DNA of 64,000 nucleotides from Nitrosopumilus sp. GTDB taxonomy: Archaea; Thermoproteota; Nitrososphaeria; Nitrososphaerales; Nitrosopumilaceae. This document shows, in pieces, positions 39,070 to 57,680 of the stretch. Within the stretch, counting starts at the first letter, position 1; each line of letters starts with the position of its first letter. Under the pieces are notes generated by a model. That model ran no database searches. It saw only the letters and a program-made list of their open reading frames with translations, and was not told where the DNA came from. Position numbers and translations under genes: made by a program. Location: assembly GCA_965206745.1 (NCBI GenBank), contig OZ242220.1:480001-544000 (forward strand), given 5' to 3'.

Positions 39070-39141
39070 AGGTACCCGAGGGAGTCGAACCCCCTTGTAT
39101 AAGCTTTGCAGGCTCACGCATAACCGTTCTGCCAGAGTACC
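39070..39141 (-). tRNA. tRNA-Cys(GCA)
   Basis: Reverse complement GGTACTC..TGAGC-CTGCAAA-GCTTA..GGGGG-TTCGACT-CCCTC GGGTACC T folds as a cloverleaf. Confidence 0.92.
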
Positions 39142-40571: not shown

Positions 40572-41195
40572 ATGACTGAGTTTGATATTGATACAACTTT
40601 ACAGTCTCTATCCCAAATTCGCCCAATTTTTCACAATGAAGCAGATTTCCAATTTGCATTTGCATGGGAAATTCAAAAGCAATATTCAGATTACAACATT
40701 AGGTTAGAATACAAAGTCCCTACATTTGGTAATCGCTATACGGACATATGGATAAACGGCAAAAATCCTATTGCAATTGAATTAAAATACAAGCCAGTTT
40801 CAATGAATCTGCAGCATAATAAAGAGACATTTGAATTGAAAAATCAGGGTGCGGAAGATCTTGGCAGATACGATTTTCTAAAGGATGTTCAAAGGTTGGA
40901 AGAAATTATTATGAAATATCCTGAAACTAGCGCATATGCCATCATGATAACAAATGATAGTCTGTATTGGAGAAATCCGTCAAAACTCGATTCTATTGAT
41001 AAAGACTTTAAGATACATCAAGGTCGAAACATTCATGGCACCTTATCGTGGTCACCAAAGGTAGGAAAGGGCACTACAGAGAACAAGGATCCAATACAAA
41101 TTCATGGCAAATACTGCATGAATTGGCAAAGCTATTCTGACATTGATCAAGAATATGAAAAATTCAGAATGTTATGCTTGCAAATTAATTCATAA
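40572..41195 (+). CDS. putative PD-(D/E)XK nuclease
   Basis: FHNEADFQ..RLEY..TDIWI..IAIELKYK pattern. Confidence 0.6.
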   Translation: MTEFDIDTTLQSLSQIRPIFHNEADFQFAFAWEIQKQYSDYNIRLEYKVPTFGNRYTDIWINGKNPIAIELKYKPVSMNLQHNKETFELKNQGAEDLGRYDFLKDVQRLEEIIMKYPETSAYAIMITNDSLYWRNPSKLDSIDKDFKIHQGRNIHGTLSWSPKVGKGTTENKDPIQIHGKYCMNWQSYSDIDQEYEKFRMLCLQINS

Positions 41196-41334: not shown

Positions 41335-42255
41335 TTATGATTTTTCGTCTCTGTTGGACATTGCCACATTAAACTGCTTGAATGTATCTTCTGCCATGTC
41401 TCTGATCTTGTCCTGTAATAGCACGTCTCCGTCTAGAAACTCACTGGGATTCACTTTGATTGATATGACAGGATATTTCACACATCTGTCTCTCCCTGGT
41501 TCTAAAGAGACGTTGCCATGTTGATCTAAAACTACGTAACGCGGGTCACGCCGAGTAGGCATTTTTACTGCATCTTCAAACGCATTTTCTAGTTTTATAA
41601 CCAAGTTGCAATCTTGTTTAAAATAACGGTCATACCGTTTATTTCCATATCCTAAAGGTTCATACAAATTGACTGCAGCTACTCTGATACAATGAATATC
41701 CGAAATACTCCATATTCCATGTTTGGTTACAATATATGAGAGAGGATCAATAAATTGAGATTTTTCAGACATTGGAGCTATGCCTATTCCCTTTTTAGTA
41801 TAACCAAGAATGAATGGTTTGCTGTGTCTTGCTACTAATTGTTGTGTGGTAGAAAACGCATAGTCTAATTGCAATCTTCCTTCTGAGAGAAATCGTAAAG
41901 AACCAAATTCGATTATTCCGTTAACCATGCAATCATATATTCTTGGAACCATTTCATCAATGGTGTAATGTATGTATGCAACATTGTCCCAAAATTCTTT
42001 TTTTAACCTCGTTTCGATCTCTTGATCACTCATTGTGTCCTTCCAATTATCATAGATTTTTTGGGGACTCACCCCACATGCAAAGATATGGTGTGGTCTG
42101 TTTTTGGCCTGTTGTATTATGCAGATATTTCCATCTTCATCTTGGCCTATTTCCAATTTCTGATCCAATTCATTACACATCTTTGATGCATCTTCAAGCA
42201 ACAAACGAAATCTGGCATGATTCCATGATGAATCTATCTTGCCATATGATTTCAT
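41335..42255 (-). CDS. hypothetical protein
   Basis: 306-aa ORF divergent from TBP paralogue 1; no recognisable motif. Confidence 0.7.
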   Translation of the reverse strand: MKSYGKIDSSWNHARFRLLLEDASKMCNELDQKLEIGQDEDGNICIIQQAKNRPHHIFACGVSPQKIYDNWKDTMSDQEIETRLKKEFWDNVAYIHYTIDEMVPRIYDCMVNGIIEFGSLRFLSEGRLQLDYAFSTTQQLVARHSKPFILGYTKKGIGIAPMSEKSQFIDPLSYIVTKHGIWSISDIHCIRVAAVNLYEPLGYGNKRYDRYFKQDCNLVIKLENAFEDAVKMPTRRDPRYVVLDQHGNVSLEPGRDRCVKYPVISIKVNPSEFLDGDVLLQDKIRDMAEDTFKQFNVAMSNRDEKS

Positions 42256-42391
42256 ATGATGGTATTTTTTAATATCTTATTAAATTTTTAGTAGAAAAAA
42301 ATCACAATTGAAAAATATGATCAGATAAAGGATGATTCAAACAATGTTGCTTTTTTCAAAGTGTATTAAGGGTATAACATTCAATAAAAGA

Positions 42392-42931
42392 ATGTCACTT
42401 TCAAGTTCAAAACTTAGATCAGAGATAAAAATTCAAAACACTGTAACCACGGCAGATCTCAAGCAGGAGATAAATCTGACATCTTTTAACAAACACAAAC
42501 ATCTTAGCTCAAATCTAGAACTATACAGATGTGGCTATGTTAAAGATGACACCATGACAGGCAGAGTTACCGTCTTTAGAACCGGAAAACTCATCTCAGT
42601 TGGAACAAAAAGTCCAGGGCAGGCAAAAAAAGAGCTAGCCAAAGCATGTAAGATACTACAGAAATACAAGATTGCAAAACCTGTTAAAATTACTCCACAA
42701 ACAAGAAACATTGTATCAAGATTTGACATGAAGAAAAAATTACCAATAGAAAAACTTGCAAGAACACTGCCAAAATCCATGTATGAGCCAGAACAGTTTC
42801 CTGGACTGATTTATAGAATTCAGGGCAGCTGTGTTGCCCTGATATTTGCATCAGGAAAAGGAGTCATTGCAGGAGCAAAGTCAATAGAGGAAACAAATGC
42901 GGCATTCTTTGATGTAAAATCACGGCTCTAG
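42392..42931 (+). CDS. tbp: divergent TATA-box-binding protein paralogue 1
   Basis: Two TBP repeats: IQNTVTTADL..VTVFRTGKLISVGTKS and RNIVSRFD..YEPEQFPGLIYR..LIFASGKGVIAGAKS. Likely start ATG at 42392. Confidence 0.85.
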   Translation: MSLSSSKLRSEIKIQNTVTTADLKQEINLTSFNKHKHLSSNLELYRCGYVKDDTMTGRVTVFRTGKLISVGTKSPGQAKKELAKACKILQKYKIAKPVKITPQTRNIVSRFDMKKKLPIEKLARTLPKSMYEPEQFPGLIYRIQGSCVALIFASGKGVIAGAKSIEETNAAFFDVKSRL

Positions 42932-43011: not shown

Positions 43012-43935
43012 TTGACTACCTATCCTACATCTAGAGCGACTATCTTGTTTGAGGAGTCAATAAAGTCAAAGTACACCAAAAAGAACTACACGTCACACCT
43101 TAACCAATTCCTGAGATTTGCAGATATGCATTCTGAGAACCAACTGCTGAAAATACCTCATATGGAACTGCAGTACAAGCTAGAAAATTACCTAATAGAG
43201 TTAAAACATACCACAAACCCCAATTCAATATCGTCAAGGTTTCAGGGGATAAAGCACTTTTGTATTATGAACGAGATCAACCTCAACTGGAATATCATAC
43301 ACAAGATGTTCCCGCAAAGACAGAAAACCCAGAGTCTGCGTTCGTACACTTGCAAGGAAATCAGAGAGTTGTTATCTTGTGCAAAAAGTCTGCGTGATAC
43401 AGCCTTGATTCATTTTTTGGCATCGACTGGTGCAAGAATAGGAGTGTTTGATAATGTACTGTCAATGAAACATCTCAGAAAAATATCACACGGTTGCAAT
43501 GCCGTCAAGGTCTATGCAGGACAAGTTGAGGAATATTGGGTTTTTCTTACACCTCAGGCCTCAAGGGCATTGAATGTTTATCACAAATATCGTAAGCAGC
43601 ATGGTGAGATGTTTTGTGAAGACACTCCAATCTTTGCTATAATGAGTGCATCCCATGGACAGCTGGGATGGAGTGGTGCAAGATCTGCAGTATACAGAAC
43701 AGTCTCAAGAAGCAACATAAGACAAGATAAACAAGATAGTAGATATGATGTGCAGGTGGACCACGGATTCAGAAAGAGATTCAACACTATTCTAAAACTG
43801 GATAATTCTGTAAACTATAACATTGCCGAAAAGCTAATGGGACACAAGAATGGACTTGATGGTGTATATCTGACTCCTACTCTAGATGAACTCTTTGTGG
43901 AATTTAGAAAAGTGATGCATAAAATTGAGGTTTAA
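43012..43935 (+). CDS. tyrosine recombinase/integrase
   Basis: Catalytic residues present: STGARIG (R), HGFR (HxxR), LMGH (H), DGVY (Y). Confidence 0.92.
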   Translation: MTTYPTSRATILFEESIKSKYTKKNYTSHLNQFLRFADMHSENQLLKIPHMELQYKLENYLIELKHTTNPNSISSRFQGIKHFCIMNEINLNWNIIHKMFPQRQKTQSLRSYTCKEIRELLSCAKSLRDTALIHFLASTGARIGVFDNVLSMKHLRKISHGCNAVKVYAGQVEEYWVFLTPQASRALNVYHKYRKQHGEMFCEDTPIFAIMSASHGQLGWSGARSAVYRTVSRSNIRQDKQDSRYDVQVDHGFRKRFNTILKLDNSVNYNIAEKLMGHKNGLDGVYLTPTLDELFVEFRKVMHKIEV

Positions 43936-44044
43936 TCTTTTTTCTTTTAATTCAACCATTTATTGATATGGGACTATTTGAATCAAAAGTCCAAATATTC
44001 TTTCTCAAGAAAAGATATAATTTACAGATGAAATTATCTACAAA

Positions 44045-44878
44045 ATGGCAAAACTTATTTGTACTCTAAAAGAATTTACATATTTTATCGATCCAAGAGT
44101 AAGGAATAATGTTGCCACCATGACAAAACGATCAAAAAATCTCCTAGATTACAAATGTCAAAAATGCAATGAAAAAAAAGAATTAGATGCAGCCCATAAA
44201 CATGGGAGCAGCAGACCTGAGATTATTCGTAATGTTTTAAATAATTACAAAACAAATGATGATGAATATGAAATTGATGATTTGCAGAAAATAATCGATG
44301 AAATCAATGTAGCTCACACTCCCATTGAAGATCACTTTATATTTTTATGCAAAACATGTCACCGAGAATACGATTCATGGACACGGAATCTCGTCAACAC
44401 ACAACTTGAAGATGGCAATAGTAAAAAATCCTACAACATACAACCAAATAAATCACAAGAATCAAAGATACTCACAAATCTAGGTGATAATAACAATCCT
44501 GCTGAAATTTTATTCAAGGATGAGACCCGGAGTTGGAAATACAAGCTTGGTTGGACATCAATCCAAAATAGAAAAAATATCGAAGAACTAATTTCTAAAA
44601 TAGAAGCAAATTTTGATTGCTATCCGATTGCCCGCAATTCATGGTATTATTATAAACGAAATGACAACGACAAACAATTCTCAGCAATAAAAACCAACAT
44701 AAATGATTCAGAGATATGTTTTAGAATAGAACCTCTCTCTTTTGACATTAAGGATCCAAGAATAATTCATGGTAAGAGGTGGTTTTTTCCAGAAGGCAAA
44801 GAAAGAAAAATCAAGATCATCCCAGAAAACTATGAATTAATTTTGAAATGTTTGGATTATTCATACAAAATATCTTGA
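44045..44878 (+). CDS. putative HNH-type endonuclease with additional C-terminal domain
   Basis: CQKC..LDAAH....LCKTCH zinc/HNH-like pattern in the N-terminal half. Confidence 0.55.
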   Translation: MAKLICTLKEFTYFIDPRVRNNVATMTKRSKNLLDYKCQKCNEKKELDAAHKHGSSRPEIIRNVLNNYKTNDDEYEIDDLQKIIDEINVAHTPIEDHFIFLCKTCHREYDSWTRNLVNTQLEDGNSKKSYNIQPNKSQESKILTNLGDNNNPAEILFKDETRSWKYKLGWTSIQNRKNIEELISKIEANFDCYPIARNSWYYYKRNDNDKQFSAIKTNINDSEICFRIEPLSFDIKDPRIIHGKRWFFPEGKERKIKIIPENYELILKCLDYSYKIS

Positions 44879-45041
44879 TGTATTATTTCAGATAGAATTA
44901 CCCAATTATCAATTTGAATAGAAGATGAGGTATCTAGTGGATAAATTCAGATTTGTAAAAAATCCTCTAAAAACGAAAATATTGATTAATATTTCCATGT
45001 TGTAGTTGGTTTTTGATCCTAATAGAGAATTATGCTTGTAT

Positions 45042-46340
45042 CTATGTCTCTATAACTTGACCGAACTGTAACTTTATAGTTACAGTTAATCTCATGCATA
45101 AAATTATGATGATTATGAATTGTATACAATTTATTGCGTCAACTCCTGACAGGATTGACGCAATTTTTTGTTGTTCTGGTAGATATTTTGGAACGAGTAT
45201 TAACATTTTTTTAATTTCAGTCTTACTAATTTCTAGAAAAGTTGTTCCATATGATAATCGGATTAGGGTATTTTTATTGTTACATAATAAATAAAAAATG
45301 AATAAATTATCAAATTTATTATTACAAATTATATTTTGAAAACCTTGATTGGTAGATATTGGGTTGGCAGTTATTGCACATTCTCCAATAGTTGCTCTAG
45401 AAGTGAGTAAAATTGTACCTTTTGGTAATAATTTAGCTGAACTATCTTTTAATCCTTTTTCTGTAATCTTTCTTTCAGTATTATTAATGTAAGTTGTTTG
45501 TAACTTTGTAATATCTGTTGGAACCGCCCACAATATATTCCCATTCCAGTATTCTTTATTTTTAGAATTTGGTGTGCCACCACTGACTATTTCTCCTATA
45601 TTATCAAGCTTTGTTATTTTCCATTCTTCTGGAATTTCAATCTCTTTTCTAAATAATCCTTTAACTTTCTTAAACTTTGTATGTCTAATTCCTCTAGCCA
45701 ATAATTCTTGCATCAATCCTTTCTTTAATCGTCCAGCTTTATCCACAACTTGTTGTGTATTTTGTATCAATGCGTCAACATTAGAAAGAATTGATGCAAT
45801 TTTTTGTTGTTCGTTGATAAGAGGTAATAAAATTGGCATAATGGAATATTGTTTTGCATTAACATTGGGTTGAACTCCCCATGTTTGTATCGATAATAAC
45901 CATGCCCAATAAAATTTTGAATGTGTTAAATAAAAAAGAAATTTAGAATCAAGATTTTTATTGTCAGGTTTAAAACGAATTAGATATCCTGCAAATGCAC
46001 ATGTTTCATTACTTTCTTGATGAAGATATGTTTTGCCAACTGTTGCGCCAGTTCTTGCAAATAGAATATCTCCTTCATATAAAATATAATCTTGAGCATC
46101 TTCTTCGGATATTGATTTCCATTCTGAATATCTTAATGTTCCATTATCATTTAGATCTGTGATACGTATGTATCGAGGTAATTTTAGATTTTTTTCTATT
46201 GCTGACACAGATACACCATATTCAGCTTTACCAATACAATTTTCAGATAATGTTGTTTTCTTCCATTCTTCTGGAATCTCCATCACTTTTCCAAAAATCC
46301 ATTTTAGTAACTTGTAACCTTGTCTTGGTTTTCTAGCCAT
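45042..46340 (-). CDS. hsdS: hsdS-A: type I S subunit with two TRDs but no C-terminal conserved helix (probable silent cassette)
   Basis: MARKPRQGYK..IPEEW TRD1, central EQQKIASILSNVDA..KKGLMQELL, then TRD2. After EQQKIASILSGVDA the frame runs into unrelated sequence (INCIQFIIIIIL..). Confidence 0.88.
   Translation of the reverse strand: MARKPRQGYKLLKWIFGKVMEIPEEWKKTTLSENCIGKAEYGVSVSAIEKNLKLPRYIRITDLNDNGTLRYSEWKSISEEDAQDYILYEGDILFARTGATVGKTYLHQESNETCAFAGYLIRFKPDNKNLDSKFLFYLTHSKFYWAWLLSIQTWGVQPNVNAKQYSIMPILLPLINEQQKIASILSNVDALIQNTQQVVDKAGRLKKGLMQELLARGIRHTKFKKVKGLFRKEIEIPEEWKITKLDNIGEIVSGGTPNSKNKEYWNGNILWAVPTDITKLQTTYINNTERKITEKGLKDSSAKLLPKGTILLTSRATIGECAITANPISTNQGFQNIICNNKFDNLFIFYLLCNNKNTLIRLSYGTTFLEISKTEIKKMLILVPKYLPEQQKIASILSGVDAINCIQFIIIIILCMRLTVTIKLQFGQVIET
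45135..45167 (-). repeat. IR2-left: distal inverted repeat, pairs with 56921..56953
   Basis: Reverse complement AAAATTGCGTCAATCCTGTCAGGAGTTGACGCA is 32/33 identical to 56921..56953. The site is itself a near-perfect palindrome (45133..45164). Confidence 0.9.
45699..45812 (-). repeat. IR1-left: central inverted repeat, pairs with 56288..56401
   Basis: 114 bp; its reverse complement is identical to 56288..56401 on base-by-base comparison. Confidence 0.95.
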
Positions 46341-46347
46341 AATTGAT

Positions 46348-46890
46348 TTATTTAAGCAACCCATTTAATCTTTGAATTATCTCAAAAGAGGCAGTGTTTA
46401 ACTCATTTGCAGATTTTGCACCTATGATTACAATTTTTCCTGATGCAAAAACAAGACAGCTACAACTATCCAATCCTTTTACTATCATACCTGGAAATGT
46501 TTCAGGATCATACACTACACCATCCATCTTTGTTGATATGATGTCAATCGGTATTGCTTTACCTGTTGTAACTGTAGCTACAATATTTCTAATCTTTGTT
46601 GATAATGTTACATTTTTTATCATGTTGTGTTCTAACAGATGGAATTTAGATTGGTTTAACTGCTCTTTTGCCCTTTTAATTGACTTTGCGCCAACTGATA
46701 TCATCTTACCACTTAGAAAAATAGTAACACGACCATCCATTTCAGGTATTTTGACATATCCGCATCTACCACCATATATTGCCTCATCATAAATACAACA
46801 AGGGATTTTTACAAATTTTAATATGTCTACTTTTTGCTTTAAATCTGCAGTACATACAACATTGTGAATTTTGGGTTTTAGATTCAACAA
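46348..46890 (-). CDS. tbp: divergent TATA-box-binding protein paralogue 2
   Basis: IHNVVCTADL..VTIFLSGKMISVGAKS and IRNIVATV..YDPETFPGMIVK..LVFASGKIVIIGAKS. Likely TTG start at 46890 or 46887. Ends 7 bp before the hsdS-A start. Confidence 0.85.
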   Translation of the reverse strand: MLNLKPKIHNVVCTADLKQKVDILKFVKIPCCIYDEAIYGGRCGYVKIPEMDGRVTIFLSGKMISVGAKSIKRAKEQLNQSKFHLLEHNMIKNVTLSTKIRNIVATVTTGKAIPIDIISTKMDGVVYDPETFPGMIVKGLDSCSCLVFASGKIVIIGAKSANELNTASFEIIQRLNGLLK

Positions 46891-46954
46891 AACAGAACAC
46901 TTTGCGGCTCTTAAATATCCCTCATTTTTGATAAAATATTTAGATGATGTAAAT
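46891..46954. promoter_or_regulatory. putative compact divergent promoter region between tbp2/hsdS-A and hsdR
   Basis: 64-bp AT-rich gap between head-to-head starts, with TATA-like CTTAAATA and TTGATAAAATATTTA. Inferred from position only. Confidence 0.4.
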
Positions 46955-49900
46955 ATGTCAAAACTATTGGATTTTAATGTAGGTACAGGTGATGAGGCAG
47001 AACAATCAGAGATCCCAGCACTAGAACAGCTAGTCAAAATGGGATATCAATATATTTCAAAAAATGACCTAAAAAGAGAACGAAGAAAAACAACCGAAGT
47101 CTTATTGTATGACAGATTAAATAATGCAATTAAAAGAATCAATCCTCAACTAGATTCAGATGGAATCGATGATGCAGTAAATCAGATCAAAGAAGATACA
47201 TTTCCATTTACATATGATACAATGAATACTAATGAAAAGATTCGAGCTAAATTAATTGGATTGTCTCAAACAGGAGGACTGGAACCAATAACAGTTGATC
47301 AACATGATAAAAACAGGACCATAAAAAAGACTGTAAAACTTTTTGATTTTGATGATATAGATAACAATGATTTTATTGTTACAAATCAATTTGAATTGCA
47401 GGGACTCAAAAATCTAATATATCCCGACATTGTTTTATTTGTAAATGGCATTCCATTAGTTATCATAGAATGCAAATCACCATTTAGAAGAAATTGGTTA
47501 GTTGATGCAGTAGAAAAAGAAAATTTCAATAAATATCGTTCTAGAGGAGCAGGTTATGAAAAACTAATGTTCTACAATCACATTCTAGTTGCAACTTGTG
47601 GCACACAAGCAAGACATGGAACAATATCGTCAGATTTAAATCATTTTCAAAATAGCAGATGGTCAAGCGCATATCCATTAACTGAAAAAGAGATTGAAGA
47701 AAAATTTGGAAAAAACAGAGAACAAGAGATTTTAATTGCAGGAATGCTTGACAAATCCCATCTTTTGGATTTACTAAAAAATTATGTACTTTATCAAACA
47801 GTTAACAACAAGCGAATCAAAATTATTGCAAAACATCAACAATATAGAGCAGTCAGAAAATGTGTTGAAAAAATTAAAACTGCAAACACCAGACAAGGAG
47901 GAATTATCTGGCACACTCAGGGTTCAGGAAAATCCTTTACAATGCTGTGGGTTGCAAGGCAGGCAATAGAATATGATAATTTGCCTCTAGTCATAGTCAC
48001 AGACAGGCGTCAATTAGATAAACAAATCCACACTACTTTTACACAAGTTGGATTCCCAAATCCAATAAAGGCATACAAATCAGCACAACTTGCAGATTTT
48101 ATAAAATCACCAAAGGGTAAAACCATGATGACTACAATTCAAAAATTTGAGGAAATTAGTGAATCTACAGATGAGAAAATTATCGTTCTAGTGGATGAGG
48201 CACATCGGTCACAGTTTGGAATCGATGCAGGTGCAATGGATAAAGCAATTCCAAATGGGATTTACTTTGGGTTTTCTGGAACTCCAATTGATAACAAAGA
48301 TAAATCCGTATATCGAGTATTTGGTGATCTAATAGACAAATATGGATTTGAAGAATCAAAAGCAGATGGTGCTACCATCCCGATAAGATATGTTGGACGA
48401 TTGCCAAATCTCTTTGTCGAAGATGATGAATCTATCGATATCTTATTTGATAGAATTATTGGTTCTGAACCAAACATGACGCCAGAACTAAAAGAACAGC
48501 TAAAAAAAGAATATGTGAATAAAGATAAAATTATACAAGCTCCTCAAAGGATTAAAAAAATTGCATTGGATATTGTAGAGCATTACACTAATAACATTCA
48601 AGATAATGGCTACAAGGCAATGATTGTGGCATCATCACAAGAATCTGCAGTACTATACAAAGAAGAATTAGATCGCCTCAATGCTCCGCCATCAAAAATC
48701 ATCATGGATCAAAGGATTGGCAAGACAGGAAAAGATGGAACAAGTTGGGATGTCCATTATCTAACCGATTCTCAAAAAAGACAAATAGAAGATTCTTTCA
48801 AAAATCCAGATAATGAGATTAAAATTTTGATAGTTGTTGATATGTTGCTAGTTGGATTTGATGCACCGATAGTCAAAGTGATGTATCTTGATAAATCCCT
48901 CAAAGAGCATGCACTACTTCAGGCAATTGCACGTGTAAACAGGTCATATGATGAATGGAAAGAAGAGGGATTGATTGTAGATTATTATGGCATAACTAAG
49001 AATATTCAAAAAGCATTAGAAACTTTTGATCCAAAAGATATCAAAGGAGCTTGGGAATCTGATGACTCGCAACTAGATATACTAAAAATATATCATACAC
49101 AAACAATGAATTATCTCAAAGGATTAGATAAAAACAAACCGGAACAAATCATAGAAGCATTTGAATCCATTGATAAAAGAGAGGCATTTGAGGATTATTT
49201 TAAAAAATTTTCCAAAGTTCTAAATTCACAATTATATAAAACGGAATCATCTCAATACATTTCTGATTTTAAGGAATTGAGTAAGATCAGAGCATTGTTG
49301 AGAAACTGGTATGAGAATCCAAAAAATTCTACTCGAAAATATGCTGTGATGATTCAGAAATTAATTGATGATGCAATAGGAGCAACTGGTGTTTCTGAAC
49401 TTGTAAAACCAATGGAAATAACATATGATAATTTCTTAGCATATGTCTTAAAATTTAAATCTTCAAGAGCTAGAACTGCACTTATTAAAAATAAAGCAGA
49501 GCAAGTGATTATGGAAAATTACTCCCATAATCCAGTATATTATGAAAAATTGCGGGAATTACTTAAACGATTAATCTCAGAAGAAAAACAAAGAAGAGAA
49601 GAGAATGCGGAGTATGTTGATTCAACCATGGAGGAAAAATTCAAGGAAATTTATAATAAAGCATTAGATATAGAAAAAGAAAGAAAAAATCTTGGGTTTG
49701 ATAGAGACATAGAATTTTCAATATATGGATTAATTAAAGAATATAAAAAAGATAAGAATAAATCAATTGAAATTACAAAGAGATTATCTGAAAAAATATT
49801 ACCTGAGACAGAAATTATTGAATGGCATCATAAATTAAGCATCAAACGAAAGATTGAAAAAATCACATATGATATTCTAGATTCATTTGGTATTGTGGAT

Positions 49901-49960
49901 GAAGATATATCAAAATTATCGGAAAAGATTTTAACATTGCTCAATTGTGATAACTTGTGA
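46955..49960 (+). CDS. hsdR: type I restriction enzyme R subunit (locus 2)
   Basis: YPDIVLFVNGIPLVIIECK, HTQGSGKS, DEAHRSQ, GFSGTP, VGFDAP, QAIARVNR. Likely start ATG at 46955 (MSKLLDF). Confidence 0.95.
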   Translation: MSKLLDFNVGTGDEAEQSEIPALEQLVKMGYQYISKNDLKRERRKTTEVLLYDRLNNAIKRINPQLDSDGIDDAVNQIKEDTFPFTYDTMNTNEKIRAKLIGLSQTGGLEPITVDQHDKNRTIKKTVKLFDFDDIDNNDFIVTNQFELQGLKNLIYPDIVLFVNGIPLVIIECKSPFRRNWLVDAVEKENFNKYRSRGAGYEKLMFYNHILVATCGTQARHGTISSDLNHFQNSRWSSAYPLTEKEIEEKFGKNREQEILIAGMLDKSHLLDLLKNYVLYQTVNNKRIKIIAKHQQYRAVRKCVEKIKTANTRQGGIIWHTQGSGKSFTMLWVARQAIEYDNLPLVIVTDRRQLDKQIHTTFTQVGFPNPIKAYKSAQLADFIKSPKGKTMMTTIQKFEEISESTDEKIIVLVDEAHRSQFGIDAGAMDKAIPNGIYFGFSGTPIDNKDKSVYRVFGDLIDKYGFEESKADGATIPIRYVGRLPNLFVEDDESIDILFDRIIGSEPNMTPELKEQLKKEYVNKDKIIQAPQRIKKIALDIVEHYTNNIQDNGYKAMIVASSQESAVLYKEELDRLNAPPSKIIMDQRIGKTGKDGTSWDVHYLTDSQKRQIEDSFKNPDNEIKILIVVDMLLVGFDAPIVKVMYLDKSLKEHALLQAIARVNRSYDEWKEEGLIVDYYGITKNIQKALETFDPKDIKGAWESDDSQLDILKIYHTQTMNYLKGLDKNKPEQIIEAFESIDKREAFEDYFKKFSKVLNSQLYKTESSQYISDFKELSKIRALLRNWYENPKNSTRKYAVMIQKLIDDAIGATGVSELVKPMEITYDNFLAYVLKFKSSRARTALIKNKAEQVIMENYSHNPVYYEKLRELLKRLISEEKQRREENAEYVDSTMEEKFKEIYNKALDIEKERKNLGFDRDIEFSIYGLIKEYKKDKNKSIEITKRLSEKILPETEIIEWHHKLSIKRKIEKITYDILDSFGIVDEDISKLSEKILTLLNCDNL

Positions 49961-50652
49961 TTAAAAAAATAAAATATCTTGATTCTGTGATAGAATATGA
50001 CTTAATCAAAAGTAAACGTAGAAAGACATCACAAATCACAATTACACCTGATAAAATAACGATAAGAACACCAGATACGAAATCTTCAGCAGATGTAGAA
50101 AAAATTGTACAAAAAAAGGCACAATGGATATTTAAAAAACAATTACATTTTATTGGACAAAAAAAACCAGTTTTTTCATTAAAATCGCTTTTACTAATTT
50201 ACGGCAAAAATTACAAAATCAAGATTATTCCCAACAATACGGAAAAAACATGTCTGAATGGAGATGTTATAGAATTTCACATATCACAAAAGAAATACAA
50301 TACAAAGCAGATCAAAGCACAGTATGATGCATATTTGAGGAAAAAAGCGTACGTATTGTTTCCAAAATGGACCAAAGTATTAGCAGAAAAAATTGATGTG
50401 CATCCAACCAAAATCAACATCAAAGAGCTCCGAGGTAGATGGGGAAGTGCTACTGCTACAGGTGCGATCAATCTTAATTCCAATCTGATAAAGGCTCCAA
50501 AAAAGATCATCAGATATGTTATTTTTCATGAATTATGTCATTTTAAAATCAAAGAACATTCACATCATTTTTGGAATCTAATGGGACAACATATGCCTGA
50601 ATATAAGGAATCAATAAAATGGTTAGAAGCAAATGGAATCAAAATCAGTTAA
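49957..50652 (+). CDS. M48/YgjP (DUF45) family metallopeptidase-like protein
   Basis: RGRWGSA, YVIFHELCH..HSHHFW. Overlaps the hsdR stop. Confidence 0.88.
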   Translation: MIKKIKYLDSVIEYDLIKSKRRKTSQITITPDKITIRTPDTKSSADVEKIVQKKAQWIFKKQLHFIGQKKPVFSLKSLLLIYGKNYKIKIIPNNTEKTCLNGDVIEFHISQKKYNTKQIKAQYDAYLRKKAYVLFPKWTKVLAEKIDVHPTKINIKELRGRWGSATATGAINLNSNLIKAPKKIIRYVIFHELCHFKIKEHSHHFWNLMGQHMPEYKESIKWLEANGIKIS

Positions 50653-50689
50653 GATGTATTTTTGATGCTAAAATAGTATGATATCGTCT

Positions 50690-50810
50690 ATTCAAAAACC
50701 AAATACAAAAATGTATTCCACAAAGAAAAAGATAACAAGGTTGTTCAGAAAATGCTTACAATGTACATGGTATTGAAAGAAAAAAATGACATATGAAAAG
50801 ACAGATCATA
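50690..50810 (+). mobile_element. IS630-like N-terminal fragment
   Basis: KEKDNKVVQKMLTMYMVLKEK, similar to the fragments at about 24.3 and 54.5 kb. Limits approximate. Confidence 0.4.
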
Positions 50811-50939
50811 TACTTATGCATTCTTCTGATGGAGTATCCATATGGGTACAAAGAGGATCGTCTTTATGCCTTCGTAGAGGAGAGATCTTCCATGAATTAA
50901 TAGGTCTCCATAGATATCATATACAAAACTTAACAAGAT

Positions 50940-51830
50940 AATGCACCCTAACGAATTTTTGTTCATCAGTTTATCACACATCAAATCTTGACGGAAATAA
51001 ATATGCGTGATTATTTTTACCAGTAATCCAAACACATGTTTTTTAATCATCAGTTAATCATATTGTTAGTTATTGATAATATGAGTTAAAAAAATTACAG
51101 TTCTTTTATTCAATGGCTTCAAGCTACCTGTCAGATTACAAACGATCTTGACCTGCAAATCATATCTCATCACACCACACTACAAAAGACAGCGGCAAGA
51201 ATAAATGAAAAGATACTATACATGGTAATAAAACGATTCATCAATCATGTATATGCAAGAGAAATATTTGGAATTGATATATTTGGAATTGAGACAGGCC
51301 GTGCAATAAAACATTATTCATGGAGGGTTCAAAATCAGATATATATTTATCAAGGCATATCTCTATGTTCTGACATATCAACCCAGATTGTCTGCACTAC
51401 AATTGTAGATAATCACCAGTATCTCATGACGTCAAACATGTTTCTTCATCGCTATCAAAAATACATCCTCACAAATTAGTAAAGCCAATGATACCTGACA
51501 AGGGAATAGGATTCAGAATTAATCCACAAATTGATACTCAGTAACAGCATACATTCTGTAATTCCTGTAAGAAGCAGGACAAACAGGGTCAGCAAGGTAA
51601 AAAAGACATGCAGAAAAGAGATGTATCGAAAATTTGAAAAAGAGACATATTTTCAGAGAAATTAAAAAGAGTTGTCTTTTCGGTAATAAAGAGAATGTTT
51701 GATCAAAGATTCTTTCATGTAATGAATCTTAGATAGTAAAAGAAACACCACATAAAATATTGGTCTATAACTGTCACAGAATATACCTGATCGTAAATTT
51801 AGAGATGATTTCTATATTGTCGATCTAACT
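50940..51830 (+). mobile_element. heavily degraded IS5-family (DDE_Tnp_1-like) transposase
   Basis: Frameshifted fragments in the expected order: DKG.DSELIH, VIPVR, KFEKETYFQRN, VFSVIKRMF, LVYNCHR. Confidence 0.65.
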
Positions 51831-51866
51831 AAATCTATATTACTTGAAGACTATCATAGTTATTAG

Positions 51867-53375
51867 TTGTCAGATAAAATTACCCTTGAAGAATTAAAAT
51901 CTTATCTTTGGAAAGCCACTGATATTTTACGGGGATCTCTTGATCCTCAAGAATATAGACAACCGGTAATGACTGTTCTATTTCTAAAGAGATTAAATGA
52001 TACTTTTGAAGAAAATGTTGAAAAATTAATCAAAGAGGGAAATACACAAAAAAAAGCAGAACAAAAATTTCGACACAAGTTCTATGTTCCAGAATCTGCA
52101 CGATGGCATGTACTATCTGATGCATCATCGAATCTGGGTGAAATAATTGATAATGTCTGTAGAGATATTGAAAACAACGTTTCACAACTAGAAGGAGTTC
52201 TCACCAATACTACATACAATGATAAAAAAAAATATCCTGATGATAAATTACGAAAATTAATTGCACATTTTAATGAACTTACACTAAAGAACCAAAATCT
52301 AGAGAAAGAAGACATCTTTGGAGATGCATACGAGTATTTATTGGAGACATTTGCAGATGAAACAAAAAAGAAAGGTGGTGAATTTTTTACTCCAAGGGAA
52401 ATTGTTCAACTTTTAGTAAACATTACAAAGCCACAGGAAAAAATGAAAATCTCAGATCCGACATGTGGTTCTGGTGGTATGTTGGTTGTGTCTAGAAAAT
52501 ATGTCAAAGATCACAGAGGAAATATCGAAAACATTGTACTTGATGGTCAAGAATCTAATTATGGAAATTTAGGAATGTGTAAGATGAATCTAATGTTGCA
52601 TGGTGTGGAGAATTTTAGAATAGAATATGGTGATACCTTGTCTGATCCTAAACTTATTGACTGTGGAAAATTGAAACAATATGATAGAGTATTGGCAAAT
52701 TTTCCATTTTCCATGGATTGGGATAACTCTACTGCATCAAAAGATCCATACAATAGATTTGGATACGGTATTGCACCAGCCAAAGATAAGGCAGACTATG
52801 CATTTATCTTGCACATACTATCATCTCTAAACGAAAAAGGACAAGCAGCCATTGTCTGTTCACAAGGTGTTTTGTTCAGAGGAGGTGAGGAAGGGAAGAT
52901 TAGAAAGAATATGATAATGGGTAATGGATCAAATAATCTTGCAAATGATGTAATTGAGGCAATAATTGCATTGCCTCAAAAGATGTTCTGGGGAACAAGT
53001 ATTCCTGCTTGTGTAATGATACTAAACAAGAATAAGCCTACAAAAAGAAGAAGAAAAATAATATTCATTTACGGCGCAAAGGATTTTGAGGAGGGAAAGA
53101 ATAGAAACAAACTACGCGATGTAGATATGAAAAAAATTATCTCAGCGTTTGAGAAATTTGAAGATATTGACAAATATTGTCATGTTGCAAATATTGAAGA
53201 GTTGGAGGAAAATGAATTTAATCTCAACGTTCCAAGATATGTTGATATTTCAGAGCCTGAAGAAGATATTGATATTCAGAATGCATGGGATGAACTCATA
53301 GAGATCAACACAGTACAAGAAAAACTGAAAAAACAAGTAAAAACAGATCTCAAGGAATTAGGAATAAAGATCTGA
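51867..53375 (+). CDS. hsdM: type I restriction enzyme M subunit (locus 2)
   Basis: LWKATDILRG, GEFFTP, DPTCGSGGML, ANFPFS (variant motif IV), GVLFRG, NLNVPRYV. Confidence 0.94.
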   Translation: MSDKITLEELKSYLWKATDILRGSLDPQEYRQPVMTVLFLKRLNDTFEENVEKLIKEGNTQKKAEQKFRHKFYVPESARWHVLSDASSNLGEIIDNVCRDIENNVSQLEGVLTNTTYNDKKKYPDDKLRKLIAHFNELTLKNQNLEKEDIFGDAYEYLLETFADETKKKGGEFFTPREIVQLLVNITKPQEKMKISDPTCGSGGMLVVSRKYVKDHRGNIENIVLDGQESNYGNLGMCKMNLMLHGVENFRIEYGDTLSDPKLIDCGKLKQYDRVLANFPFSMDWDNSTASKDPYNRFGYGIAPAKDKADYAFILHILSSLNEKGQAAIVCSQGVLFRGGEEGKIRKNMIMGNGSNNLANDVIEAIIALPQKMFWGTSIPACVMILNKNKPTKRRRKIIFIYGAKDFEEGKNRNKLRDVDMKKIISAFEKFEDIDKYCHVANIEELEENEFNLNVPRYVDISEPEEDIDIQNAWDELIEINTVQEKLKKQVKTDLKELGIKI

Positions 53376-53599
53376 TCAATGATATCTGCTCTATAAATTA
53401 GGAAATATTTTGTACAATTTCAGATAAGACATCAAATGATATCTTTGTTGCATGTAATTGTGTAGTTAATCCTACAACGTTTTTCCATAGGATTCATTTG
53501 CAGGTAAATCAGTTGACGTATGTTGTGGTTTGTTACAGGAAAGAATATTGAGCTGTTGTGTTATGTGTCGTATTTCAGTTGTTATAATCCATGCATCCA

Positions 53600-54580
53600 A
53601 AATATTGTAGATCTAGACTTACGATCAAAAATTTATCTCCTGTTGCAATTATCACCCTGTTGAGATATCGGATAACATCCATGTTGTATCGAACTGTTCT
53701 AAAGTGTTCGGAGATTTTATCCCACATATCACTGTTGGATAATATTCAGATATACACAGATCTCATTTTGCCTGATGTCCACATTTCTCCACTGCATCCA
53801 AATGTGGAGATCTTTTTGGTAGGTAGATCATCTTGATGTTCTTGTCTCTTTTGAGCAGCTCTTGGATATTGTTTGTCAGATGTTGAGGTGTCTTATCCTC
53901 TGTTACTACAATTTTACCAAAATGTCTTTGCATGTCAATGATGTATTTTTCAAATATCTTTATATCAATCAATCATATGTCCTAAAGAATTGCTTGTCAT
54001 CAATTGAAAGTGCACCATACACTGCAACTTTTTGATGCAGTCCAATGTATGGAATCATTATAGATTTCCTTTGATAGATCAGTATTTACATCACGGTGTT
54101 GCGTCATGAATAAAGAAAGATTTGTTTTGACTAGAATAATAAATCTCTTGTGTTTTAGGAATCCAATCTTGTTTTGTGTACGGCGTTGCCATCTGTATAC
54201 TGCCTTACTGTCTTCTCTGTTAATGTATATTCTTCTGGCACATTTAGGGATCCTATTGTATATCTGCATCATCTTGTTGAGTGATGTTATATGCAACGTT
54301 GCATTGGTTTTATGGAATATGTGTTGATATAATTTTGACAGAGTGATCTGCAAATTAGATATCTCATTCATTATGCGGCCAATCTTTCTGCGTTGTATTT
54401 TTGAATGCTTACCATTACGAGAAAGATCCCTGAAGACGTTCATGCTGGCCTCGTTGAATCTTGATATTCATTTGCCTACTCATTCTGAACAACACATAGT
54501 ATGTTGGCAATCTCCTCATACATCACCTTTTTTCCAATACCATGTGAACTATAATCATTCATCTACTGATTAGAATATTT
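53600..54580 (-). mobile_element. IS630-family transposase pseudogene
   Basis: Fragments RDLSRNGKHSKI (HTH region) and GKIVVTEDKTPQH..IYLPKRSPHLDAVEKC (DDE_3 'LP..SP.LN.IE' motif), with multiple stops and frameshifts. Confidence 0.75.
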
Positions 54581-55178
54581 TTTTCCTTGTCACATATTTT
54601 TTTAAATTTTTTATGTTTGGGTTATTCATGTCATACATGAACTGAGATGATCCTTATACTCAGAGTTTTACAAAATTTGATACATGAATGAGTTTTTTCT
54701 CGTCAGTCTAGTCTGATTCTGCGAATCACACTAGCAAAAATCTAACATATGATAAGAGGTAATTTTATATGGAAATATTTTTTCTACTCTGCAAACTGTA
54801 AATATATACGGATGACAATGAAGGCATGTTACAAGAATTCCTGAAGTACAAATTATTCATTTACTTGTTAATCAAACACATAACAACACCAACAGAATCA
54901 AGATCATACCAACTATGTCTAGATGATTTGATGGTTTTTTAAATTATCATGCATAGTTTTTTTAGACATCCTGTCTCCTTTCTTCCATTTCATTTGCATT
55001 CTCGCTCGTATTTTCTTGAATAGTCTTTTGATCTCTGGTATTGCGTAAATTCTTTAGATTTCATTGGTATTTTTGAGGCATATCGTTTAAAAGTTTTTTG
55101 ATTTGATGTGCTACTGATCTATAAGCTTTTTGTTATTTTTAGAGGTGAGTTTATGGGCAACATTGATTTCTTCTCATT

Positions 55179-55742
55179 ATGCAAATTTTTATATCTCATG
55201 CCAAAGAAGATAATCCCATAGTCTACCAAATATTGAAAATGCTAGACGATAATCAAATTCGTCATTGGCAGGATCTAACTCGAATAGATGTAAGTAGTTC
55301 TATTAACAAAGAGATAAACGATGCAATTAGTTCTTCTAGTCATTTTTTATTAATATGGTCAAAAAATGCAAATAAATCAACGTTTGTTCAAAAAGAATAT
55401 AATTCAGCTATTACTCCAGATTATGATTATAAATTAAAGAAAATAATTATAAGATTAGATGATACTCGTCTACCTGCATTATTGGCTGATTTACGATATT
55501 ATAGAATTAGTTCTGATGAATTAGAAAAAACTATGCATGAGATAATTTTTGACATTAAGAAACTAGATAATGAAGATGAAAGACAAAAGAAATTTGATGA
55601 TTATCTAGATGAAAAATTTGACAATATTTTTATTGCAGATCACGAATACAGCACATCATATGCATTAAAAAATATAGATAACAAAACATATCATGAAAAC
55701 ATGCTAAGTTGGGAAGATGTTTTAAATGAGGAAGGAAATTGA
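55179..55742 (+). CDS. TIR-domain protein (TIR_2-like) with short C-terminal extension
   Basis: IFISHAKED, EINDAISSS..FLLIWS.NA.KS.FVQKEY with the putative catalytic Glu. The stop overlaps the hsdS-B start. Confidence 0.85.
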   Translation: MQIFISHAKEDNPIVYQILKMLDDNQIRHWQDLTRIDVSSSINKEINDAISSSSHFLLIWSKNANKSTFVQKEYNSAITPDYDYKLKKIIIRLDDTRLPALLADLRYYRISSDELEKTMHEIIFDIKKLDNEDERQKKFDDYLDEKFDNIFIADHEYSTSYALKNIDNKTYHENMLSWEDVLNEEGN

Positions 55743-57052
55743 AAAAAAGAAATAGATACAAGAGAGTAAAAGGATTGTTTGGTGAATATGAAGAAATTCC
55801 AGAAGAATGGGGCTTTTCAATTTTAAATAAACTAACTTTACATAATGATCAGAGTTCCATCCGAATGGGTCCATTTGGAAGTAGTCTAAAAAAACATGAA
55901 TTATTAGATGAAGGAAAAATTAAAACAATCTGGATTGAAAATATTGTAAATAATGAATTTTCATGGGAATATCAGAAATATATCTCTGAAGAAAAATATA
56001 AACAACTTGGAAATTTCACAGTAAAACCAAATGATCTTCTTATTACAATGATGGGAACTTTGGGAAGAGTAGCTATAGTTCCAAAAGACATCGATATTGC
56101 CATAATCTCGTCACATCTTCTAAAAATTACATTAGATAATGACAAAATGATTTCAGAATATTTGTATTATTTCTTAAAATCAAATTTTGCATTTCGACAG
56201 ATTACAAAAGAATCTAGAGGGATGGTAATGGGAGGTTTGAATACAAAAATTATTAAAAATCTATGGATAATTATTCCAACAATTCTAGAACAACAAAAAA
56301 TTGCATCAATTCTTTCTAATGTTGACGCATTGATACAAAATACACAACAAGTTGTGGATAAAGCTGGACGATTAAAGAAAGGATTGATGCAAGAATTATT
56401 GATAAAAGGAATAAAACATGACCAATTTAAGAAAATAAAAGGATTATTTGGTAAAGAGATAGAGATTCCTGAAGATTGGGAGATCAAGAAAATTAATGAA
56501 ATAGGAGAGATAATAACTGGTAATACTCCATCAACAGATAACCAAGAATATTATGGTAATGAATATTTGTGGGTTAGCCCATCAGATATAAATCAACAAA
56601 AATTTATTGATAATACTAATTCAAAATTATCCCGTAAAGGATTCGAAGTTTGTAGAAGTATACCTAAATATGCGGTTTTAATTGTTTGTATTGGTTCGAC
56701 TATAGGAAAAATTGTAATAGCATCCAAACAAATGTCAACTAACCAACAAATTAATTCAATAATTTGTAAGCAATTTGATCCAGAATTTGTGTATTATCAA
56801 ATACTAAAAAATAATAAATTAATCAAAAACATATCTAATCAAGCTGCAGTTCCAATTTTAAACAAAACAGATTTTGGCATAATTAAAATCATTATACCCA
56901 CTAATTATGAAGAACAAACCAAAATTGCATCAATCCTGTCAGGAGTTGACGCATACATTCAAAAAAATCAAGAATACAAGAAACATCTGGAACTTCTAAA
57001 GAAAGGATTAATGCAAAAATTACTAACTGGTAAAATACGTGTAAAAGTATGA
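55739..57052 (+). CDS. hsdS: hsdS-B: full-length type I S subunit (probable expressed allele)
   Basis: IPEEW TRD1, central conserved helix, IPEDW TRD2, and complete tail YIQKNQEYKKHLELLKKGLMQKLLTGKIRVKV. Confidence 0.94.
   Translation: MKKRNRYKRVKGLFGEYEEIPEEWGFSILNKLTLHNDQSSIRMGPFGSSLKKHELLDEGKIKTIWIENIVNNEFSWEYQKYISEEKYKQLGNFTVKPNDLLITMMGTLGRVAIVPKDIDIAIISSHLLKITLDNDKMISEYLYYFLKSNFAFRQITKESRGMVMGGLNTKIIKNLWIIIPTILEQQKIASILSNVDALIQNTQQVVDKAGRLKKGLMQELLIKGIKHDQFKKIKGLFGKEIEIPEDWEIKKINEIGEIITGNTPSTDNQEYYGNEYLWVSPSDINQQKFIDNTNSKLSRKGFEVCRSIPKYAVLIVCIGSTIGKIVIASKQMSTNQQINSIICKQFDPEFVYYQILKNNKLIKNISNQAAVPILNKTDFGIIKIIIPTNYEEQTKIASILSGVDAYIQKNQEYKKHLELLKKGLMQKLLTGKIRVKV
56288..56401 (+). repeat. 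IR1-right (114 bp)
   Basis: Identical inverted copy of 45699..45812. Contains TTGCATCAA-TTCTTTCTAATG-TTGACGCA (56301..56329). Confidence 0.95.
56921..56953 (+). repeat. IR2-right (33 bp)
   Basis: Contains TTGCATCAA-TCCTGTCAGGAG-TTGACGCA (56925..56953). Inverted copy of 45135..45167. Confidence 0.9.
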
Positions 57053-57194
57053 CTTTGGGAATGTGCCTAGAATGGAAAGATCATCAAAATTCAGAACAAG
57101 ACTGATTCCTATGCCTAGAATGCCAGTTGTATCCTTGGGGGAGCCACAAAACGGGTATTAGGTATAAAATACCCCTTTCCTCACTTGACGATTA

Positions 57195-57680
57195 GTGGAT
57201 AGAATAAAGCGACTCTCATTTGAGGTTCTAGTAGATCACAAATCCAAGTTTGGCGAGGACTTTGCTGATAACAAAAAGGCACTTGATCTGATATCGATAA
57301 TCCGTTCAAAGGGATTAAAAAATGAGGTTGCAGGATATATTACAAAATTTATCAAAAACGAGATTCGTGAGGAGAAGACCAAGCAGGCAAGAATTGAGGC
57401 GGCAAAATCTGAGCAGCAGTTTGAGGAACCATCTGAGGCAGAACTCGGAAATGATGTACCTCAAGAGGCAGATAAAGTGACAACAGATGATAATACAGAT
57501 CAAGCAGTATCTGACATCCCTGATATTACAGAGCCTGCCACAGCAGACACAGCTCAAACAGTACCTGATATCCCTGAGACTGTAGAACCTGCCACAGCAG
57601 ACACAGCTCAAACAGTATCTGAGACTGCAGAACCTGTCACTGAGAATCCATCCGAACCAGTCAAAGAACCTGAATCATAA
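57195..57680 (+). CDS. rps17e: 30S ribosomal protein S17e with acidic repetitive C-terminal extension
   Basis: IKRLS..FGEDFADNKK..RSKGLKNEVAGYITK. The tail has EPATADTAQTV twice. Confidence 0.88.
   Translation: MDRIKRLSFEVLVDHKSKFGEDFADNKKALDLISIIRSKGLKNEVAGYITKFIKNEIREEKTKQARIEAAKSEQQFEEPSEAELGNDVPQEADKVTTDDNTDQAVSDIPDITEPATADTAQTVPDIPETVEPATADTAQTVSETAEPVTENPSEPVKEPES
57530..57636 (+). repeat. in-frame tandem repeat (54-bp period) in the rps17e tail
   Basis: CCTGCCACAGCAGACACAGCTCAAACAGTA occurs twice. Confidence 0.8.

Follow-up and report, generated by a model that had tools for sequence, protein, structure and literature searches.

A TBP gene within a type I restriction-modification locus

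What is a gene for a TATA-binding protein (TBP), a general transcription factor, doing among the genes of a type I restriction-modification (R-M) system? We have addressed this question for a 64,000-nt stretch of a Nitrosopumilus sp. genome (contig OZ242220.1, C1:480001-544000 of a 1.86-Mb genome with 41% GC), hereafter called the window. On its minus strand, an open frame of 180 codons with a TTG start (46348..46890) matches Pfam TBP and encodes a divergent TBP paralogue of 180 aa, TBP2, between the specificity gene hsdS-A and the restriction gene hsdR. The comparison with related loci revealed that the conserved feature is a TBP travelling with R-M genes, rather than a partner of one hsdS allele. 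We give about even odds (a probability of roughly 0.5) to the reading that TBP2 is a functional member of a separate archaeal TBP paralogue clade carried with R-M cassettes, serving as an R-M-dedicated, promoter-binding and controller-like factor.

TBP2 has a TBP fold with a rebuilt first repeat

TBP2 matched Pfam PF00352 with two repeats (E 6.9e-31, 106.4 bits against a cut-off of 22.9). It fell below the cut-off of all 10 NCBIfam TBP models, the best score being 94.5 bits vs. 181, and is ~30% identical to the genome's own TBPs. The same held for a second divergent TBP of the window, TBP1 (42332..42931, plus strand, Pfam TBP 2.5e-35), which was also below all 10 NCBIfam cut-offs; no PADLOC model matched either protein. 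Homologues of TBP2 begin at the same "KPKI.NVV" position. A longer open reading frame (ORF) extending up to 47037 was rejected, since it would cross the hsdR start and no homologue supports it.

The AlphaFold2 model of TBP2, built from a 33-row alignment, reached a pLDDT of 93.4 and a pTM of 0.85, with strands and helices predicted in the same succession in each repeat, which is the symmetry of the TBP saddle. When the model was searched against the PDB with Foldseek, 43 of the 44 matches at E<=1e-3 were TBPs (TM 0.81-0.89, root-mean-square deviation [rmsd] ~2 A, 25-29% identity), and the top match was TBP 1mp9 (TM 0.88). Comparison with solved TBPs by sequence alone recognised mainly repeat 2.

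We have then examined which residues the clade has kept. Among 33 members of 43-80% identity, 16 columns were invariant (Y39, C43, Y45, K47, V55, F58, G61, K62, S65, N102, V104, Y127, P129, F132, F148 and G157). These include the aromatic residues at the four kink positions (Y39, F58, F132 and F148), which we presume to be the kink residues from the yeast and human TBP structures. In an L-INS-i alignment of 38 clade members, 19 canonical Nitrosopumilaceae TBPs and 39 further relatives, the canonical repeat-1 "QFPG" aligned with "IYGG" of the clade, which places Y39 at the canonical Phe of "FPG"; this Phe-to-Tyr change at the first kink position may alter binding. The stirrup motif of the second repeat, Y[DE]PE.FPG, was kept, and we take this C-terminal stirrup to be the TFB/TFIIB contact seen in 1ais and 1vol.

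The two repeats have diverged in different ways. For the canonical positions conserved at >=90%, 11 of 44 in repeat 1 were kept and another 11 were fixed to a different residue, while repeat 2 had 14 of 52 kept and none fixed to a different one. The repeat-1 replacements in TBP2 include EQFPGLVFRL to IYGGRCGYVK and MVCTG to MISVG. Judged from the alignment, the first repeat was rebuilt and then became frozen, with the TFB-facing repeat 2 staying canonical-like. A first repeat fixed to different residues next to a retained second repeat is what one expects of a newly acquired function and not of a decaying gene.

The coding sequence agreed with this. The Nei-Gojobori dN/dS of TBP2 against its closest orthologue (L009) was 0.17 (dS 0.61), and values of 0.10-0.27 were obtained over the six pairs with dS below 1. 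TBP2 is thus intact and under purifying selection, and the relaxed selection named in a preliminary description of the locus as a possible refutation was not what we found. That TBP2 is a decaying, functionless duplicate is hardly credible: its score below every NCBIfam TBP cut-off (94.5 vs. 181 bits) and its TTG start would fit such a reading, which is nevertheless contradicted by the selection and conservation data, namely the intact frame, the dN/dS range, the 16 invariant columns, the confident fold and a promoter box conserved with L009 (see below).

The phylogeny was inferred with IQ-TREE (LG+G4, 98 rows, SH-aLRT support only), with 74 of 80 non-redundant loci represented after dropping sequences that contained an internal stop or fell short of 150 aa. 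The divergent TBPs grouped in a single clade (support 100), to which none of the 19 canonical TBPs belonged, and the thaumarchaeal "CGY" group within it had a support of 97. The position of the root is provisional because the outgroup came from Nitrosopumilaceae only. TBP2 belonged to a subclade of 26 rows (SH-aLRT 95) and TBP1 to another of 9 rows (100). Since they sit in different old subclades, the two are not recent duplicates, as the preliminary description had argued; their identity is 43% over 169 aa. The alignment also bore out the repeat-1 signature that it had recognised in both proteins (RCGYVK..M.GRVT.F..GK.ISVG.KS). The corresponding motif of TBP1 reads DLYRCGYVK, and its gene lies 80 nt upstream of a recombinase gene.

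The divergent TBP clade is linked to R-M genes of several types

We have surveyed the neighbourhoods of the clade in species-representative genomes and in metagenomes. The counts below are given without P-values, because related loci are not independent samples. The scan of species-representative genomes yielded 13 loci, which were annotated by Pfam on 145 ORFs and by tblastn with the window proteins. Type I genes lay within 8 kb in 7 of the 13. The arrangement closest to that of the window was found in L011, where the TBP gene overlaps hsdS by 4 nt and hsdR is divergent. In a Nitrosotenuis locus (L014) the order was hsdM>hsdS>TBP>hsdR>YgjP, in a Nitrososphaeraceae locus (L018) it was TBP>hsdM>hsdS>hsdR, L013 carried an hsdS pair with hsdM and hsdR, and hsd genes were nearby in L012, L009 and L015. 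The linkage of TBP and hsd genes thus recurs in many genomes; that it might be unique to this one was the other refutation named in the preliminary description.

The metagenome scan added 80 loci; after removal of TBPs >90% identical to a kept one, 80 of 93 loci were left. These were grouped by their repeat-1 motif (CGY, VAY or CAY), many of the contigs being only 1-3 kb long. In the CGY branch, an hsd gene was present in the available flank of 27 of 39 loci and within 500 bp in 23 of 39. Where at least 2 kb could be read on both sides, the proportion was 13 of 15. The gene orders included hsdM>hsdS>TBP>hsdR (L030), hsdS>TBP>hsdR on a short contig (L029) and TBP>hsdM>hsdS>hsdR (L043 and L050). 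Further CGY loci were inspected by Pfam on 31 of their 69 ORFs: an MmeI-like gene preceded the TBP gene in L058, and L032, a near-duplicate of a locus scored "no hsd," had the type III order Mod>Res>TBP. The relatives of TBP1 were R-M-linked as well (L050, L058, L071 and L103). Four further divergent loci were fetched (L102, L103, L104 and L105); L103 showed hsdS>hsdM>hsdS adjoining the TBP gene, in L104 the TBP lies beside the same recombinase as in the window, and L102 and L105 had neither hsd genes nor the recombinase.

For the VAY and CAY branches, database entries with a name carry the label Bathyarchaeota or Nitrososphaerota archaeon, and 683 clusters matched at E<=1e-20. We have surveyed the 21 loci whose contig continues for 2.5 kb or more on at least one side of the TBP gene. 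Of the 132 ORFs located no further than 4.5 kb from it, 59 were analysed by Pfam, the larger and nearer ones being chosen. Methyltransferase, specificity or restriction genes were found in 15 of the 21 loci, and in 17 when BrxL (L054) and a DUF559 nuclease-like gene (L051) were added; among the ORFs scanned, the other 4 loci had no recognisable R-M or related gene. The linked systems were of type I (L064, L083 and L097), type IIG/L (L060, L077, L099 and L086), type II (L084, L087, L096 and L100) and type III (L080), and other methyltransferase, specificity or restriction genes were present in L065, L088 and L091. In L091 (4486-6435), the gene after a VAY-type TBP gene, in the same orientation, encodes a TFIIB domain, and the two are flanked by a McrB-like gene and an Eco57I-type methyltransferase gene; they may form a full TBP and TFB set that is private to a defence locus. 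A scan of IMG/VR viruses with the clade patterns returned 26 loci, all of 23-36% identity, and the clade was not found there.

This breadth allows another explanation, according to which the TBP paralogue acts alone and clusters with R-M genes as defence genes do, for instance as a back-up or decoy TBP that sustains defence transcription or blocks viral promoters during attack. It would account for neighbours such as CRISPR-Cas (L019), KwaB-like (L009), ApeA-HEPN (L013), BrxL (L054), McrBC (L024 and L091), Mrr (L014, L088 and L100) or DUF5655/PDC-S18 alone (L010), and for a clade as rare and patchy as defence genes are (6/151 family and ~5/401 phylum genomes, see below). We regard such an autonomous role as unlikely, given the tight embedding in operons, with overlaps or 3-50-nt gaps between hsdS and hsdR or after Res/hsdM, the hsd gene within 500 bp in 23 of 39 CGY loci, R-M genes being the commonest neighbours by far, and the absence of any PADLOC model matching TBP2.

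The canonical TBP loci inspected lack this linkage

Sixteen canonical TBP loci from 15 genomes, inspected over 8 kb on each side, had no hsd, recombinase or other panel match. The three canonical TBPs of this genome are far from any hsd gene (0/3), and no hsd match was found at the canonical TBP loci of a phylum sample (0/7), so that overall 0 of 26 canonical loci had an hsd gene.

The clade is also rare. Divergent TBPs scored at least 111 bits and canonical ones at most 72 bits, and by this threshold a divergent TBP was present in 6 of 151 Nitrosopumilaceae genomes (G000, G039, G028, G146, G063 and G078) and in none of the nine same-genus genomes of that sample. These 151 include one unpublished genome (G077), whose sole match was of the canonical type. 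When 401 phylum genomes were searched with a profile, 16 matched at E<=1e-30, and from nine of these ten regions were fetched, three being divergent-type and seven canonical. The divergent-type regions showed hsdR>hsdS>hsdM>TBP (G476), an Eco57I/MmeI-like gene within ~600 bp of the TBP gene with a PLD-helicase close by (G291), and a housekeeping context (G221). Divergent TBPs occur in about 5 of the 401 phylum genomes.

These frequencies bear on the idea that TBP2 is an ordinary alternative general factor for global regulation, with an R-M neighbourhood that is incidental to the island. With three canonical TBPs and six TFBs encoded in the genome, besides a single very weak TBP-like frame at 385 kb, a multiplicity of factors is normal here, and the second repeat and the aromatic residues of TBP2 are canonical. 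We nonetheless hold this idea to be very unlikely, as the clade is found in 0 of 9 same-genus and only 6 of 151 family genomes, the gene sits in an island of 27-36% GC within a 41% GC genome, and the R-M adjacency recurs across distant lineages against 0 of 26 canonical TBP loci. The weak frame, outside the window at C1:384808-385329 (plus strand, 173 aa), matched TBP weakly, with 27.8 bits for one half and 21.2 bits for the other, and lacks both FPG motifs; to judge by these matches, its product may be a further, very divergent TBP-fold protein.

Gene spacing, candidate promoter and proposed role of TBP2

The TBP2 gene stops at 46348 and the hsdS-A ATG lies at 46340-46338 on the same strand, leaving a 7-nt gap with neither a T-tract nor a hairpin. 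A terminator scan of bacterial type, which is not meaningful for archaea, found no hairpin terminator between the two genes. On the other side, the TBP2 TTG (46890) and the hsdR ATG (46955) are separated by a 64-nt spacer in head-to-head orientation. The start of hsdR is supported, because HsdR homologues align from residue 2. The distances given in the preliminary description (7 bp and about 64 bp) were confirmed, and the geometry it described, an apparent operon with hsdS-A facing hsdR, is operon-like by its spacing, from which TBP2 and hsdS-A are probably co-transcribed.

A candidate promoter composed of a TFB recognition element (BRE) and a TATA box, aatgagggatatttaagagcc, was located at 46906..46926 on the minus strand, 15-35 nt upstream of the TTG. 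This 21-nt box is identical, and at an equal distance, upstream of the closest orthologue in L009, despite different upstream neighbours, and it occurs a single time in the window. Its putative function as a promoter would be consistent with a leaderless or short-leader transcript, given the distance to the TTG.

How could such a protein serve an R-M cassette? TBP2 would bind promoter DNA, probably at a variant box, and together with a host TFB would start or tune the transcription of the adjoining R-M genes, acting as a private initiation factor or "controller" of the cassette. In the window, it would use its own BRE/TATA-like promoter and share the 64-nt control region with hsdR. The retention of the saddle, the kink residues and the TFB-side stirrup, combined with a new surface and with an association with every R-M type, points to a role in expression and not to a part in one enzyme. 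A structure prediction of an HsdM-TBP2 complex scored 0.00 and gave no verdict, being evidence neither way. More tentatively, we propose that TBPs whose repeat 1 was rebuilt form a class devoted to R-M systems ("R-M TBPs"), which has spread horizontally in Nitrososphaeria and Bathyarchaeia, its members being controllers for systems of types I, II, IIG/L and III. The presence of this clade beside R-M genes suggests that archaea turned a general transcription factor into a private defence partner.

Several observations weigh against a dedicated controller. HsdR was found in 21 of the 151 family genomes, only two of which (G000 and G063) have a divergent TBP, and the systems without one include some whose HsdR is 52-57% identical to that of the window; as most HsdR-bearing family genomes do without it, the divergent TBP is an optional accessory. 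Members with no R-M gene nearby exist (L010, with only a DUF5655/PDC-S18 gene, L019, beside CRISPR-Cas, L102, L105 and L150). The position of the TBP gene relative to the R and M genes varies, being first, last, between them, divergent or convergent, whereas bacterial C genes lie more regularly upstream of R. No TFB partner is encoded in the island, all six TFB genes being elsewhere in the genome. An operator search, which covered the window only and did not compare motifs across loci, gave no shared operator; the core of the TBP2 box (16 nt) occurs once in the window, against a chance expectation of 0.73. Finally, there was no RNA run among the sequencing runs containing the TBP2 locus.

The TBP2 gene lies within a potentially invertible segment

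The preliminary description had placed TBP2 inside an invertible segment. The gene does lie between the arms of an exact 114-nt inverted repeat, at 45699..45812 in the central conserved region of hsdS-A and at 56288..56401 in that of hsdS-B, and so belongs to the 10.5 kb that an inversion would turn around. Over this repeat, the two genes agree at every position of alignment columns 49-162. A second inverted repeat of 43 nt (91%) is present near the hsdS 3' ends (45135-45177 and 56911-56953). From this layout, a shufflon-like hsdS design could give four specificities by inverting 10.5 kb including hsdR and hsdM. Inverted hsdS copies, long identical repeats and a recombinase nearby (1 kb away), as expected of a shufflon type, are all in the window. 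The same design, with central and terminal repeats, occurs in two Nitrosopumilus metagenome-assembled genome loci, the inverted hsdS repeats lying at 9058-9204/14457-14603 in L011 and at 9078-9272/15452-15646 in L013.

The inversion itself was not seen. In the contigs of runs X1-X3, no strand-switch joint was present over 44000-58000, and the contigs end at both 114-nt arms; the Logan contigs of X1 and X2 break at the right arm (56288-56401). These breaks are uninformative on inversion, because an assembly is expected to break at such a repeat. The proposal that A1-containing alleles would be expressed with TBP2 and B1-containing alleles with the neighbouring TIR gene therefore holds only as far as the geometry, in that inversion through the central repeat would keep TBP2 upstream of the A1 half and the TIR gene upstream of the B1 half. 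The claim that the TBP is the partner of one hsdS allele was not sustained, for relatives accompany single-hsdS, type II, IIG/L and III systems, so the TBP is not specifically part of the switch. Divergent TBPs are present in single-hsdS type I operons (L014, L018 and L030), and in L013 the TBP gene is outside the invertible part.

A related explanation makes TBP2 a structural, DNA-bending cofactor, comparable to IHF or Fis, for the R-M complex or for the tyrosine recombinase that would invert hsdS. TBPs bend DNA sharply, and the new conserved surface of repeat 1 could be a protein contact. Moreover, homologues of the recombinase with 63-73% identity adjoin TBPs in L009, L011, L013, L020 and L104, and inverted hsdS pairs are present in the window, L011 and L013. 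We consider this explanation improbable and have downgraded the recombinase-cofactor idea in particular, because the recombinase is near only 7 of 39 CGY loci. The gene panel detected a recombinase in none of the VAY/CAY loci, where Pfam did identify other integrases (L087 and L097). Many loci contain just one hsdS, and a shared physical role is unlikely with linked enzymes as mechanistically unrelated as those of types I, II, IIG/L and III.

The low-GC island and its other genes

Positions 30-58 kb of the window have 27-36% GC, and most flanking bins have 40-47%. This low GC relative to the flanks and to the genome mean indicates that the island was acquired. A tRNA-Cys gene (39070-39141, minus strand) lies inside it (30000-58000). 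The order after this tRNA gene is TBP1, recombinase, hsdS-A (-), TBP2 (-), hsdR (+), a YgjP-like gene (+), hsdM (+), a TIR gene (+) and hsdS-B (+).

The type I system around TBP2 is complete, with hsdR, hsdM and hsdS all present as open frames matched by Pfam. The hsdS-A gene (45042..46340, minus strand, Methylase_S 3.5e-45) encodes two target recognition domains, and hsdS-B (55739..57052, plus strand, Methylase_S 4.8e-42) is inverted relative to it; their products are 39% identical and share an identical 38-aa central block. HsdR (46955..49960, plus strand; HSDR_N, SWI2_SNF2 and T1R_D3) has 64% identity to the HsdR of L011, whose gene is likewise divergent from a TBP gene. The end of hsdR is overlapped by the gene for a YgjP-like metallopeptidase (49957..50652, plus strand, PF01863 3.6e-49), and this pair recurs in L011, L013, L014 and L030. 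The methyltransferase gene hsdM is at 51867..53375 (plus strand, N6_Mtase 8.5e-103 and HsdM_N). The TIR-domain gene (55179..55742, plus strand, TIR_2 2.3e-18, also matched by PADLOC TIR models) shares its last 4 nt with the beginning of hsdS-B. In a metagenome locus (L040), the hsd operon likewise contains a TIR gene (5750-6334), placed between its hsdS and hsdM, and a TIR-SLOG gene is near L097; the pairing of TIR and type I genes may be recurrent.

The XerA-like tyrosine recombinase (43012..43935, plus strand) is the candidate invertase or integrase of the island. The match is weak, with 25.9 bits to Pfam Phage_integrase (cut-off 27.1) and an E of 1.2e-15, below the cut-off, to NCBIfam XerA.

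This genome has two type I systems, both in the island. The second complete one, at 30118-37484 (minus strand), comprises hsdM (800 aa), hsdS, hsdR and a YgjP-like gene. It is preceded by a DUF5655 gene (37490-38431, minus strand) that matches the PADLOC candidate PDC-S18 at 1.1e-76, and DUF5655 homologues adjoin divergent TBPs in L010, L011, L039, L046 and L052.

Some variation was observed at the end of hsdR and downstream of it. The 1.2 kb between the YgjP-like gene and hsdM (50653-51866) is without a long ORF, and at 50978 and 51023 the contigs of runs X1-X3 depart from the reference into identical loose ends of 255 nt, a sign of polymorphism that may be due to an insertion/deletion or a mobile element. 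In one X1 contig (depth ~10 vs. 439), 309 nt at the hsdR/YgjP junction (49694-50004) are replaced by 21 other letters, a variant carried by a small part of the sequenced population. No Pfam, NCBIfam or PADLOC match was obtained for four of the island's ORFs, which are 147-306 aa long (40572-41195, 41335-42255, 44045-44878 and 54000-54443), and for the first three, the ones queried, tblastn at E<=1e-5 found no homologue in 13 related genome loci.

Significance and comparison with known systems

The finding bears on how archaeal R-M systems are regulated and on how a newly acquired cassette avoids killing its host. To our knowledge, archaea have no documented counterpart of the helix-turn-helix C-protein paradigm, and there is a substantial chance that the R-M-linked TBP represents a new regulatory principle for archaeal R-M systems. 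If this is true, TBP2 would set the timing or level of hsdR relative to hsdS and hsdM from the shared 64-nt control region, and it would be the first case in which a defence system has co-opted a basal transcription factor as an accessory specific to its own module. As a natural TBP variant with one rebuilt half of the saddle, it also offers a handle on TBP asymmetry and on the evolution of promoter choice. In addition, the repeat-1 motif is a simple marker for R-M and other defence loci in archaeal metagenomes.

In the full-text literature, supplementary tables aside, we found no paper linking a TBP to R-M genes. The words "TBP" and "TATA" occurred 0 times in the main text of four surveys of archaeal defence or mobile elements (PMC6563490, PMC12988326, PMC3632139 and PMC4158269), and a paper on the TBP superfamily (PMC3597702) has no mention of Thaumarchaeota or methyltransferase.

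TBP2 shares with canonical archaeal TBPs (1mp9, 1ais and 2z8u) the two-repeat saddle (TM 0.84-0.89, rmsd ~2 A), aromatic residues at the four kink positions and the repeat-2 motifs NIVA, Y.PE.FPG and L.F.SGK. It differs in that canonical TBPs are universal, whereas its clade is rare, island-borne and R-M-linked and has a repeat 1 with 11 fixed differences. Haloarchaea and Methanosarcina carry extra TBP and TFB copies per genome, which are thought to direct subsets of promoters. Those paralogues are lineage-wide with canonical repeats, and we know of no reported link between them and R-M genes; in contrast, the TBP2 clade has a patchy distribution, was moved horizontally and goes with R-M cassettes.

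The window also resembles phase-variable bacterial type I loci in its inverted hsdS genes, long repeats and tyrosine recombinase. It differs from them in the 10.5-kb length of the stretch, which contains hsdR, hsdM, TIR and TBP genes, and in that the inverted form was not observed.

Thaumarchaeal integrative-conjugative elements carry TFIIB homologues (Krupovic et al. 2019, PMC6563490). They are likewise thaumarchaeal mobile DNA with its own copy of a general initiation factor, although the factor is a TFB, not a TBP, and the context is one of conjugation and ParB genes. By analogy, sigma or TFB genes of mobile elements, together with the C proteins of bacteria, would be the closest counterparts of TBP2.

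The bacterial C proteins are encoded by a small DNA-binding gene in or beside R-M cassettes of unrelated types, often adjoining the restriction gene. A similar placement was seen for the TBP genes, with TBP>hsdR in L014, L029 and L030, TBP>restriction endonuclease in L087 and L100, and a divergent hsdR in the window. In structure, C proteins are helix-turn-helix dimers of the Xre type; they recognise defined C-boxes and act on the bacterial RNA polymerase. TBP2 has a TBP fold instead, and its clade has a variable gene position, so that it would be at most a functional analogue; if the proposed role is true, the "R-M TBPs" would be an archaeal counterpart of the bacterial C proteins, made from a general transcription factor.

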